A stretch of 64,000 nucleotides of DNA from a virus, in IMG/VR virus record IMGVR_UViG_3300031787_000005; one strand, written 5' to 3'. Position 1 is the first letter of the stretch; every line of letters starts with the position of its first letter. A program made the position numbers and the translations under genes. The notes under the pieces are model-generated. The model saw only the letters and a program-made list of their open reading frames with translations, did not search any database and was not told where the DNA came from. Below are positions 25,346 to 47,330 of this stretch, piece after piece.

Positions 25346-25418
25346 TAGCGATGGTGGGATTCGAACCCACCCTTGAACGATTTTAAGTCGTTTGCCTCTT
25401 CCGCTGGGCTACATCGCC
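25346..25418 (-). tRNA. trnL: tRNA-Leu (UAA), short variable loop
   Basis: Cloverleaf GGCGATG/CATCGCT, anticodon arm AACGA-CTTAAAA-TCGTT, T arm GTGGG-TTCGAAT-CCCAC, A73. Confidence 0.9.
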
Positions 25419-25421
25419 AGG

Positions 25422-25494
25422 TGCTCCTTGAGGGGATCGAACCCACCTCACATCGATTATGAGTCGATTGCTTTCACCAGATAGCTAAAGGAGC
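25422..25494 (-). tRNA. tRNA-Met or tRNA-Ile2 (CAU)
   Basis: GCTCCTT/AAGGAGC acceptor, ATCGA-CTCATAA-TCGAT anticodon arm, TTCGATC T loop. Confidence 0.88.
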
Positions 25495-25496
25495 AA

Positions 25497-25569
25497 TAGG
25501 AGTGCTGGGAATTGAACCCAGACTACCCCGTTATAAGCAGGGCGCTCTGACCGATTAAGCTACACTCCC
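25497..25569 (-). tRNA. trnI: tRNA-Ile (UAU)
   Basis: GGGAGTG/CACTCCT acceptor, CCCTG-CTTATAA-CGGGG anticodon arm, CTGGG-TTCAATT-CCCAG T arm. Confidence 0.9.
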
Positions 25570-46023: not shown

Positions 46024-46051
46024 AAAAAAAGGAGGGGATCAACCCCTCCTT
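46024..46051 (-). terminator. Rho-independent terminator ending the DUF4278-like unit
   Basis: AAGGAGGGG-TTGAT-CCCCTCCTTTTTTT. Confidence 0.85.
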
Positions 46052-46144: not shown

Positions 46145-46242
46145 CACTTTGCTGCAACTAGTTGTGCTAGTTGGGCTTGATGACGACGCTCTTCTTTTTG
46201 TTTTTGTTCTTTGATTATTTGAAGGAAGTTAAGTTTTTTCAC
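46144..46242 (-). CDS. 32-aa basic peptide (GTG start)
   Basis: MKKLNFLQIIKEQKQKEERRHQAQLAQLVAAK; GTGA overlap with DUF4278-like stop, GGAGG upstream. Confidence 0.55.
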   Translation of the reverse strand: MKKLNFLQIIKEQKQKEERRHQAQLAQLVAAK

Positions 46243-46397
46243 TTCTGCACCTCCATGTTTTTACATGGGCGGTATGCTAATCCACGATATGTATTTTGTG
46301 GATGAGCAGGAGCATGAGTCTTGAGATACCAAGTTTCATACTCTTTCTTTGCATTGTCGGTGTCGTATTGACAACCTCTATAAACGGCTTTAGACAT
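46239..46397 (-). CDS. DUF4278-like small protein (two YRG motifs)
   Basis: Hand translation MSKAVYRGCQYDT...NTYRGLAYRPCKNMEVQK; RBS AAGGAG. Confidence 0.75.
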   Translation of the reverse strand: MSKAVYRGCQYDTDNAKKEYETWYLKTHAPAHPQNTYRGLAYRPCKNMEVQK

Positions 46398-46428
46398 TAG
46401 GTTTTCTCCTTAATTTTGAGGCTAAAGA

Positions 46429-46600
46429 GCGTTCCTTCAGTCGGCTTTTGCGTCTATTTTGCACTCCTTTGGAGAGATTTGTTTGATCTCCCATATCAAA
46501 TCATTCTTAGCTTGTTTGGGAATGTTCTGTTGTTGAACTCTTCCCGCAATTAATTGTGCTTGAAGGCATGAAAGAATGAGTGTCTCCATAGATGAACGAT
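46429..46600 (-). ncRNA. glnA-type (glutamine riboswitch-like) aptamer 2, split by a nested ORF
   Basis: 5' half ATCGTTCATCTATG (46587..46600); 3' half ATAGACGCAAAAGCCGACTGAAGGAACGC (46429..46457); P1 CGTTC/GGAACG, P2 TCTAT/ATAGA. Confidence 0.7.
46437..46589 (-). CDS. 50-aa two-Cys mini-protein nested in aptamer 2
   Basis: METLILSCLQAQ...KECKIDAKAD; ATG lies in the P2 5' strand and the last codons encode the aptamer 3' half. Confidence 0.7.
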   Translation of the reverse strand: METLILSCLQAQLIAGRVQQQNIPKQAKNDLIWEIKQISPKECKIDAKAD

Positions 46601-46601
46601 C

Positions 46602-46854
46602 CGTTCCGAGTCGGCTTACTTCCGTCCTATTAAGTTTTAGCACCTTGTAATCACATCCTTTCGGAGTTCTAATAGCAATTGGTCTTCTTTTCTCTGGTGA
46701 ACAACATCGTCGTTTTTAACGATGTCCATTAGTTCCCACGCTGCGTTACAACTTATTGTGACTGGAAATTCAGTCTTATTAGGTTGTGGTGAGGCAACAG
46801 AAAGAAGTGGAACCCATGCTAAAAGCAAAAGTGCTTTAGTCATAGGATGAACGT
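46602..46854 (-). ncRNA. glnA-type aptamer 1, split by a nested ORF
   Basis: 5' half ACGTTCATCCTATG (46841..46854); 3' half ATAGGACGGAAGTAAGCCGACTCGGAACG (46602..46630); P2 TCCTAT/ATAGGA. Confidence 0.7.
46637..46843 (-). CDS. 68-aa two-Cys mini-protein with signal-peptide-like N-terminus, nested in aptamer 1
   Basis: MTKALLLLAWVPLLSVASPQ...ISCNAAWEL...ITRC. Confidence 0.75.
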   Translation of the reverse strand: MTKALLLLAWVPLLSVASPQPNKTEFPVTISCNAAWELMDIVKNDDVVHQRKEDQLLLELRKDVITRC

Positions 46855-46909
46855 TAGAGGAATATTATACCTCTATTCATCTTATATAGGTGAGAAATAT
46901 CTTGAAATA

Positions 46910-46923
46910 GTAACAATAGATAC
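46910..46923. promoter_or_regulatory. NtcA-binding box
   Basis: GTAACAATAGATAC = GTA-N8-TAC palindromic consensus. Confidence 0.6.
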
Positions 46924-46937
46924 AAAAATGTATCTAT

Positions 46938-46967
46938 ATTATACTAAAAAGCGTGAAGATTTGTGAA
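46938..46967 (-). promoter_or_regulatory. sigma70-type promoter of the riboswitch cassette
   Basis: TTCACA-N18-TATAAT; a second TATAAT at 46864..46869 sits in an AGAGG/CCTCT hairpin. Confidence 0.55.
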
Positions 46968-46978
46968 AACCCTCACGC
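46946..46978 (-). terminator. Rho-independent terminator
   Basis: GCGTGAGG...TCTTCACGC-TTTTT after ORF ending at 47019. Confidence 0.65.
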
Positions 46979-47018
46979 AAGAAAATTTTGCCGGAAAAAT
47001 TTTGCCTTATATGAGGAA

Positions 47019-47330
47019 TTACTTTCGCTTTTTGGTTTTGGGTGATTGATAACCCCAGAGTTTAGGATTGACTCTACCATACCCAAAGTCAATGTCTTTT
47101 AAGTTTTCACGAAACTTATCCCAATACATATCAAACAAACGAGTTCTTGTTCCCCTGGTCAGATCAAAACAAATTTTTTCATCAACAATATACTTGATAA
47201 TATAAGCATCATTTGGTGCTTCTTTGGTACAAACATCAGCATATGAACCATTTTCAACAAGAATGTCACACCCATAGCGAGACTTACAAGTTTCTTTTTC
47301 TGCTGGTGTCCAATAGTCCATATGCTTTTC
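47019..47330 (-). CDS. Conserved cyanophage hypothetical protein
   Basis: Track 47019..47387; likely start MDYWTPAEK at 47330. Confidence 0.7.
   Translation of the reverse strand, partial: EKHMDYWTPAEKETCKSRYGCDILVENGSYADVCTKEAPNDAYIIKYIVDEKICFDLTRGTRTRLFDMYWDKFRENLKDIDFGYGRVNPKLWGYQSPKTKKRK

Follow-up and report, generated by a model that had tools for sequence, protein, structure and literature searches.

Small protein-coding genes enclosed by tandem glutamine-riboswitch-like aptamers in T4-like cyanophages

The virus genome fragment IMGVR_UViG_3300031787_000005 was analysed as a stretch of 64,000 nucleotides (nt), referred to here as the window. Its minus strand includes two adjacent sequences, units 1 and 2, that resemble glutamine (glnA-type) riboswitch aptamers and carry an entire open reading frame (ORF) each in the loop of helix P2. 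Riboswitch aptamers are usually treated as compact non-coding leaders, and their use by phages is thought to be rare. A blastn search of a phage collection placed the window phage among the T4-like cyanophages (Kyanoviridae). The gene-in-aptamer layout is conserved and widespread in this group and is not a chance match. It probably represents a phage tandem glutamine riboswitch that leads a DUF4278 gene, the dispensable P2 stem-loops of which have been turned into translated genes, such that translation and ligand sensing would exclude each other.

The elements of the two units and of the surrounding cassette are listed in Table 1. A preliminary description, made from the letters of the DNA, had reported tandem units with P1 and P2 strands closing around the ORFs, and every detail described was present on the minus strand. 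The ATG of ORF1 overlaps the P2 5' strand TCCTAT and that of ORF2 overlaps TCTAT, as reported. The last codons of ORF2 are likewise part of the aptamer, since its C-terminal DAKAD and the stop codon, which lies within a conserved GAC-TGA-AGG, are encoded by the 3' core of unit 2. The glnA consensus given there, together with the P1/P2/P3 layout, agreed with the consensus and structure line of RF01739.

Table 1. Elements of the two split aptamers and of the surrounding cassette in the window.
Feature	Position	Strand	Details
Unit 1 P1 5' strand	46853-46849	-	CGTTC, read from sequence; followed by A
Unit 1 P2 5' strand	46847-46842	-	TCCTAT; last two bases and next G form the ORF1 ATG
ORF1 start codon	46843-46841	-	ATG; overlaps unit 1 P2 5' strand
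Nested ORF1	46843-46637	-	68 codons; signal-like N-terminal helix, two conserved Cys; doubles as extended P2 arm
ORF1 internal hairpin	46725-46704	-	8 bp stem, 6 nt A-rich loop; nearly no synonymous variation
Unit 1 P2 3' strand	46630-46625	-	ATAGGA; sequence, alignment, covariation
Unit 1 aptamer 3' core	46624-46602	-	CGG, AAGUAAG E-loop strand, minimal P3; sequence, alignment, profile
Unit 1 P1 3' strand	46606-46602	-	GAACG; ends unit 1 core
Unit 2 P1 5' strand	46598-46594	-	CGTTC; begins three bases after unit 1
Unit 2 P2 5' strand	46592-46588	-	TCTAT; overlaps ORF2 start codon
ORF2 start codon	46589-46587	-	ATG; overlaps unit 2 P2 5' strand
Nested ORF2	46589-46437	-	50 codons; phrog_504, helical hairpin, two conserved Cys
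Unit 2 P2 3' strand	46457-46453	-	ATAGA, within ORF2; sequence, covariation
Unit 2 aptamer 3' core	46452-46430	-	CGC, A-rich linker, minimal P3, UGAAG E-loop strand with ORF2 stop
ORF2 stop codon	46439-46437	-	TGA, inside conserved GAC-TGA-AGG of unit 2 core
Unit 2 P1 3' strand	46434-46430	-	Ends unit 2 core
Predicted hairpin at Shine-Dalgarno region	46404-46429	-	CTCTTTA (46429-46423) with AAGGAG (46411-46406); whole-leader minimum free energy and centroid structures
DUF4278-like (IF17-like) gene	46397-46239	-	52 amino acids, two YRG motifs; preceded by AAGGAG
Small ORFs of same cassette	46242-46144, 46147-46058	-	32 and 29 amino acids, overlapping each other; after DUF4278-like gene
Strong terminator-like hairpin	46029-46051	-	Ends cassette, after the two small ORFs
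Inverted repeat AGAGG/CCTCT	46856-46874	-	Around TATAAT; ends 2 nt before aptamer 1
Promoter-like site	46938-46967	-	TTCACA, 18 nt, TATAAT; 11/12 consensus matches; likely start of cassette transcript
Terminator-like hairpin of upstream gene	46951-46978	-	Overlaps promoter-like site

Both units have the CGUUC/GAACG P1 helix of the glutamine riboswitch type 1 (RF01739), and share with it an A bulge, then a P2 opening with U-A and C-G pairs, a CGG or CGC junction and a minimal P3. Tandem copies, known upstream of gifB and DUF4278 genes, and a DUF4278 gene with a sequestered Shine-Dalgarno (SD) sequence are further common properties. The phage units differ from type 1 in having a P2 loop of 130–210 nt that encodes a protein and one E-loop strand per unit, and the nested form is missed by the Rfam model. 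The ligand contacts in glutamine aptamers are C1:G59, G2:C58 and G22 (PMC6698751), and the corresponding CG opening P1, CG closing P1 and G of the CGG/CGC junction were invariant in the alignments.

At the gathering score, cmscan of the window against Rfam revealed only three tRNAs. The short-P2 units found at the same locus in related phages, with cores that are those of the window or one base off, gave 35.6, 34.2 and 33.5 bits against RF01739 (gathering score 35), and unit 1 of S-SRM01, the core of which is slightly different from that of the window, gave 28.9 bits. Canonical phage units (94 and 46) were used to build profile hidden Markov models (nhmmer), and the ORF interiors of the window were swapped for GAAA before scoring. 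The loop-deleted units 1 and 2 scored 48.9 and 40.6 bits, inside the span of genuine members, as compared with member medians of 47.4 and 47.7 bits and with no more than 3.2 bits for shuffled sequences. Homology of the window aptamer halves to canonical glnA-type phage aptamers, and with it membership of the glutamine riboswitch family, is well supported by these scores, as the preliminary description had supposed from the likeness.

The 5' CGUUCA, hairpin and CGC linker of unit 2 occur also in the glutamine riboswitch type 2 (RF01704), which has its ligand pocket on the first two P1/pseudoknot (PK) pairs, as here, and is linked to short conserved ORFs. However, the peptide gene of RF01704 lies downstream of the aptamer and the phage ORFs lie inside. 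The type 2 aptamer assembles from two RNA pieces on addition of glutamine (PMC6698751). No match to RF01704 (Downstream-peptide) was found in the window region at E≤10 or in four related loci at E≤1.

It is quite unlikely that the conserved long-range fold is no glutamine sensor at all and that the E-loop-deficient units bind another ligand or a protein, or work only as a two-unit composite. Such a fold would fit the absence of the GAA strand from unit 1 and of the AGUA strand from unit 2, rightly remarked on in the preliminary description for the window and seen in all phage copies. The borderline Rfam scores and the CGC linker of unit 2, typical of the type 2 aptamer (PMC6698751), point in the same direction. 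However, the first two P1 pairs and G22, through which glutamine is contacted in both solved classes, do not vary in the phage units, and a DUF4278 gene is the typical context of glutamine switches.

By blastn, no other part of the region is conserved as widely as a junction of 40–46 nt that consists of the 3' half of unit 1 and the 5' half of unit 2. At the same place, the ordinary aptamer pair of S-CREM1, annotated as a glnA riboswitch, has short P2 hairpins, and S-PM2 has tandem short-P2 aptamers in the same arrangement. DSL-LC02, DSL-LC03 and S-SRM01 combine a short-P2 unit 1 with a unit 2 that houses a homologue of ORF2. Both units are nested in P-SSM4 (ORFs PSSM4_169.2 and PSSM4_169.3), whereas S-SSM7 (SSSM7_289) and P-SSM2 (an unannotated ORF) have an ORF in unit 2. 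The nested ORFs of these phages and of the window range from 49 to 69 codons.

Protein-pattern scans of IMG/VR identified 257 relatives of ORF2 and 242 of ORF1. At loci fetched by protein homology, both aptamer halves flank 117/118 copies of ORF2 and 100/101 copies of ORF1. The frequency of the nested form was estimated from IMG/VR contigs drawn by the 3' core motif alone, independently of any ORF. The unit 2 sample of 120 contigs included 60 nested, 47 short-P2 and 13 unclassified units; in the unit 1 sample, ~32 were nested and ~104 had a short P2. The aptamer type is present in hundreds of marine and freshwater cyanophage contigs, and only two glutamine aptamers were counted in cyanophage genomes in a survey (PMC5473149). 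In a third to a half of these contigs, a translated gene splits the aptamer, which standard searches therefore miss.

Some loci depart from the common arrangement. In IMGVR_UViG_3300021961_002754 (locus L101, positions ~1491–1900), ORF1 runs nearly straight into ORF2, and the 3' half of unit 1 and both the 5' and 3' halves of unit 2 are missing; therefore, both genes can persist without complete aptamers. At another IMG/VR locus (L265), a marine ORF1-family protein of the HEPVHWTIKC type is housed in an aptamer with a unit-2-type 3' core and ends in DAKAD. Thus, ORF families and aptamer types can recombine. In S-SRM01 (~2200–2235 of the fetched locus, L001), GGA replaces the TGA of the unit 2 core, and ORF2 is extended by five codons across the P1 3' strand to give a protein of 55 amino acids.

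In codon-aligned sets, the ratio of nonsynonymous to synonymous substitution rates (dN/dS) was 0.21 for ORF2 and 0.28 for ORF1. Nucleotide diversity (pi) at codon positions 1, 2 and 3 was 0.22, 0.11 and 0.37 in ORF2, and 0.14, 0.11 and 0.23 in ORF1. Length variants of the ORFs differ by whole codons. More than 190 copies, from freshwater to marine phages and at identities down to ~25%, preserve the reading frame that opens at the AUG in P2 and closes at the stop in the core. Judged by these substitution patterns, the inserts are protein-coding genes under purifying selection.

It is scarcely credible that the inserts extend P2 as structured non-coding RNA and that their open frames are incidental. 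The rod-like fold of unit 1 (see below), the stretches of ORF1 without synonymous variation and the lower variability of paired third positions in ORF1 (p = 0.02) would be expected of such extensions. They are opposed by the dN/dS values with codon periodicity and by the preserved frame. In addition, the ORF2 profiles of freshwater and marine phages match each other with a probability of 99%, and the AlphaFold2 model of ORF2 is confident (predicted local distance difference test, pLDDT, 81).

The ORF2 model is a two-helix hairpin, and that of ORF1, of low confidence (pLDDT 60), has a signal-like helix and two further helices. All nested families have a hydrophobic N-terminus and two conserved cysteines 35–45 residues apart. 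Comparison of the ORF1 and ORF2 profiles gave E-values of 2.4e-4 for the marine families, 0.08 for the freshwater alignments (hhalign) and 0.003–0.08 for the comparisons other than the marine one. These matches are weak, yet both cysteines were aligned every time, and common descent of the ORF1 and ORF2 families is plausible from these alignments.

ORF2 and PSSM4_169.3 fall in phrog_504, and PSSM4_169.2 falls in phrog_6471. At 90% identity, the ORF2 family forms 448 clusters, all of them without a name or with a wrong one. Searches for a function of the mini-proteins gave no Pfam family, only PHROGs of unknown function and nothing useful in the ESM Atlas, and Foldseek gave no match in the PDB. 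In a collection with one genome for each prokaryotic species, a peptide-pattern scan revealed no cellular homologue, and scanning it with 16-mers gave chance matches apart from two short contigs resembling mis-binned phage DNA. These contigs (L342 and L390), binned in Acetobacteraceae and Dehalococcoidia metagenome-assembled genomes, carry the cyanophage riboswitch cassette and a DUF4278 gene and are most likely mis-binned phage DNA. A mobile element with terminal inverted repeats was also considered and ruled out, since the repeats abut the aptamer core and vary by compensatory change, and the ORFs are too small for a transposase.

The strands of P1 were 100% paired and essentially invariant in 67 distinct sequences of unit 2 and 60 of unit 1, while third codon positions varied. 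For P2, test sets were chosen by the ORF, the preceding GTTCA and the 3' motif only, irrespective of pairing. Positions 1–4 of P2 in unit 2 were paired in all 41 distinct strand pairs. At positions 3–5, 95.9% were paired, as compared with 58.9 ± 4.7% when partners were shuffled (0/5000), with CG, UA and UG pairs at position 3 and CG, AU, UA and UG pairs at position 4. In unit 1, 83% were paired versus 71% in shuffles (3/5000), and all four Watson-Crick types occurred at position 4. Hence, the complementarity of P2, for which a covariation check across related phages had been proposed, is kept by compensatory change in both units, across the whole ORF.

Among the sequences listed, the codon that precedes DAKAD in ORF2 changes together with the non-coding bases 5' of the AUG: Ile AUA occurs with UCUAU, Trp UGG with UCCCA or UCUCA, and Lys AAG with UCCUU. 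This co-change goes beyond what coding constraint can explain.

Covariation of P2 also bears on the proposal that the aptamers are relics, i.e. that gene insertion killed the switches and that the halves remain as translation signals and as coding sequence for the C-terminus of ORF2. The failure of Rfam to see the split units and the decayed 3' halves of some copies (L012 and L101) would fit relics. Nevertheless, this origin is very unlikely, since the non-coding P1 strands are invariant where synonymous sites vary, P2 covaries, and ~99% of the ORF copies found by protein homology retain both halves.

In the minimum free energy (MFE) and centroid structures of the single unit 1 sequence, P1, P2 and P3 close around a rod formed by ORF1 (−66.2 kcal/mol, z = −3.19). 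Default RNAalifold gave a poor consensus for unit 2, and the structures tested were taken from RNAalifold with ribosum scoring. The proposed helices were 95% paired in the unit 1 alignment and 91% in that of unit 2, and double-sided changes in interior helices exceeded those in shuffles (30 versus 9 in unit 1 and 84 versus 33 in unit 2; 0/500 each). The interior of each ORF is thus predicted to extend P2 into a rod.

One hairpin within ORF1, which is among the stretches of this gene without synonymous change, is near-invariant at all codon positions in 60 sequences. Its helix was 100% paired, with one compensatory change of CG to UA in two sequences. This conservation points to a role at the RNA level beyond coding.

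The AUG begins 3–6 nt into the 5' strand of P2, directly behind the 5' strand of P1, in 320/320 nested units. The stop codon of ORF2 lies 14 nt past P2, inside the E-loop strand of unit 2, in 191/193 copies. In marine phages, ORF1 stops in the P2 3' strand or at the UAA of the core AAGUAAG, and in freshwater phages it stops 8–16 nt before the P2 3' strand. The nested ORFs have no room for a separate ribosome-binding site, and therefore the 30S ribosomal subunit on a nested AUG must cover the 5' strands of P1 and P2. A ribosome terminating on a nested ORF would in turn have to cover the 3' strands of the aptamer, and the folded aptamer would bury the nested AUG. Translation and aptamer folding would thus be mutually exclusive on one RNA, because initiating or terminating ribosomes would hold the aptamer open and the folded aptamer would hide the start codon. 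The type 1 aptamer that was crystallised had a GAAA tetraloop in place of L2, the loop of P2 (PMC5393176); hence, an insert can be accommodated there.

The same replaceability of L2 would suit mere passenger genes, residing in an insertion-tolerant loop of ordinary switches for the DUF4278 gene and co-transcribed with no regulatory coupling, and the aptamer halves would then serve as recombination handles by which the cassette spreads from phage to phage. L2 is dispensable for ligand binding (PMC5393176), alleles with and without an ORF coexist among related phages, an ORF1-family protein is found in the unit-2-type aptamer of L265, and the ORFs persist without aptamer 3' halves in L101. Passengers are unlikely, however, in view of a start codon that is always within the P2 5' strand and lacks its own ribosome-binding site. 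The stop codon, too, is fixed inside the core in two ways, as UGA in the E-loop strand of unit 2 and, in marine unit 1, as UAA within AAGUAAG. With this geometry, ribosome and fold are bound to interfere with each other, whether or not such interference was selected for.

The gene that follows unit 2 had been described as DUF4278-like, and this assignment was retained: the protein matched phrog_5049 (E 4.5e-9) and, below the cut-off of 25.3 bits, PF14105 (22.8 bits, E 1.2e-4). Its counterpart in P-SSM4 gave 24.7 bits with PF14105. Glutamine switches typically lead DUF4278/IF17-like genes (PMC6212724), and the window units occupy this leader position before a nitrogen-related gene, as in RF01739. 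The predicted hairpin that sequesters the SD region of the DUF4278-like gene is likely the expression platform.

If a tandem glutamine riboswitch with translated P2 arms operates here, high glutamine would stabilise P1 and P2 and so shut off the nested mini-proteins. By analogy with the cyanobacterial gifB switch, in which glutamine binding turns translation on (PMC6212724), it may also open the SD hairpin of the DUF4278 gene. At low glutamine, ribosomes would run through and keep the aptamers open. Translational coupling may come in as well, through termination on ORF2 ~13 nt ahead of the anti-SD strand. We infer glutamine binding and the regulatory logic of the split units from their sequence.

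A stronger form of this scheme is a glutamine toggle, which is conceivable and no more than tentatively put forward. At low glutamine, the P2-embedded starts would be used, two mini-proteins with cysteine pairs would be made and the sensors melted; at high glutamine, the sensors would close over these starts and translation would pass to the IF17-like protein. The aptamer would thereby combine the roles of coding sequence, operator and ribosome-reset sensor. Switches of this class would be invisible to covariance-model scans, and phage riboswitches would be far commoner than counted.

Several observations weigh against a tandem glutamine riboswitch with translated P2 arms. The E-loop (PMC5393176) defines the type 1 aptamer and consists of a GAAGUAA strand opposite a UGAAG strand; unit 1 has the first strand only and unit 2 the second only, and canonical short-P2 phage units also have one strand each. 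In the intact region 46200–47050, cmscan found no glnA or other glutamine-family match in Rfam even at E≤10; the P2 insert of 130–210 nt exceeds what the model allows, and even canonical phage units sit at or just below the gathering score of RF01739. The modules are separable, about half of the second aptamers having no ORF, and in L101 the two ORFs are retained while the aptamer 3' halves are gone.

The predicted folds raise further objections. That of unit 2 was no better than shuffles (z = −1.26), with only an AU-rich P2 of 5 bp closing 143 nt, and the interior covariation is modest and was assessed on structures derived from the same sequences; for these reasons, the structure of the ORF interiors is moderate evidence only. 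In the MFE structure of the whole leader, the P1 3' strand of unit 1 pairs with the P1 5' strand of unit 2, displacing part of both P1 helices. If termination on ORF2 opens the SD hairpin, the downstream gene could be expressed at high as well as at low glutamine, and the proposed logic would be less clear-cut.

Coding sequence is tolerated in other functional RNA folds. The loops of group I and group II introns house ORFs for homing endonucleases and maturases, and RNAIII/hld and SgrS/SgrT are dual-function RNAs. However, these are ribozymes or base-pairing RNAs rather than ligand sensors, and start and stop codons are not known to be built into their conserved cores. Also among the nearest cases, B12 switches and the Mbox of Mycobacterium tuberculosis are reported to control small upstream ORFs (PMC11260477, PMC12810186), and a small translated ORF belongs to the riboswitch logic there as in the phages. 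The titles and abstracts of those reports mention no ORF nested in an aptamer helix, whereas the phage aptamer strands flank and overlap the ORF. In the full-text literature searched on cyanophage glutamine riboswitches, DUF4278 and aptamer-embedded ORFs, no published ORF nested in a riboswitch aptamer was found, in line with the earlier impression that the arrangement is not described.

If the split aptamers bind glutamine, they would be the first case known to us in which passing ribosomes and the sensing of a ligand contend for a single helix. The arrangement bears on how cyanophages read and reset the nitrogen status of the host during infection, and provides a regulatory setting for phrog_504 and phrog_6471, both uncharacterised phage protein families. 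Long insertions in dispensable loops may by this example also occur in other riboswitch classes. Nested ORFs are carried by the cultured model phages P-SSM4, P-SSM2 and S-SSM7.

A stem-loop was located 1–4 nt 5' of aptamer 1 in 293/293 loci checked (L005–L333). Its stems are diverse yet complementary, for example TAGGGG/CCCCTA, AGGTC/GACCT and TGTGTTA/TAACACA, and the loop usually contains, or is spanned by, a TATAAT-like hexamer. Depending on where transcription starts, the corresponding palindrome of the window may be either a 5' hairpin of the RNA or a second promoter, with a −10 element held in the palindrome. Between this palindrome and the promoter-like site, at 46905–46930 on the minus strand, there are a perfect inverted repeat (GATAC-6 nt-GTATC) and the GTA-N8-TAC that had been taken for an NtcA box in the preliminary description. 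The three tRNA genes of the window are adjacent to one another on the minus strand at 25346–25569, with Rfam scores of 68.9, 55.4 and 59.5 bits.

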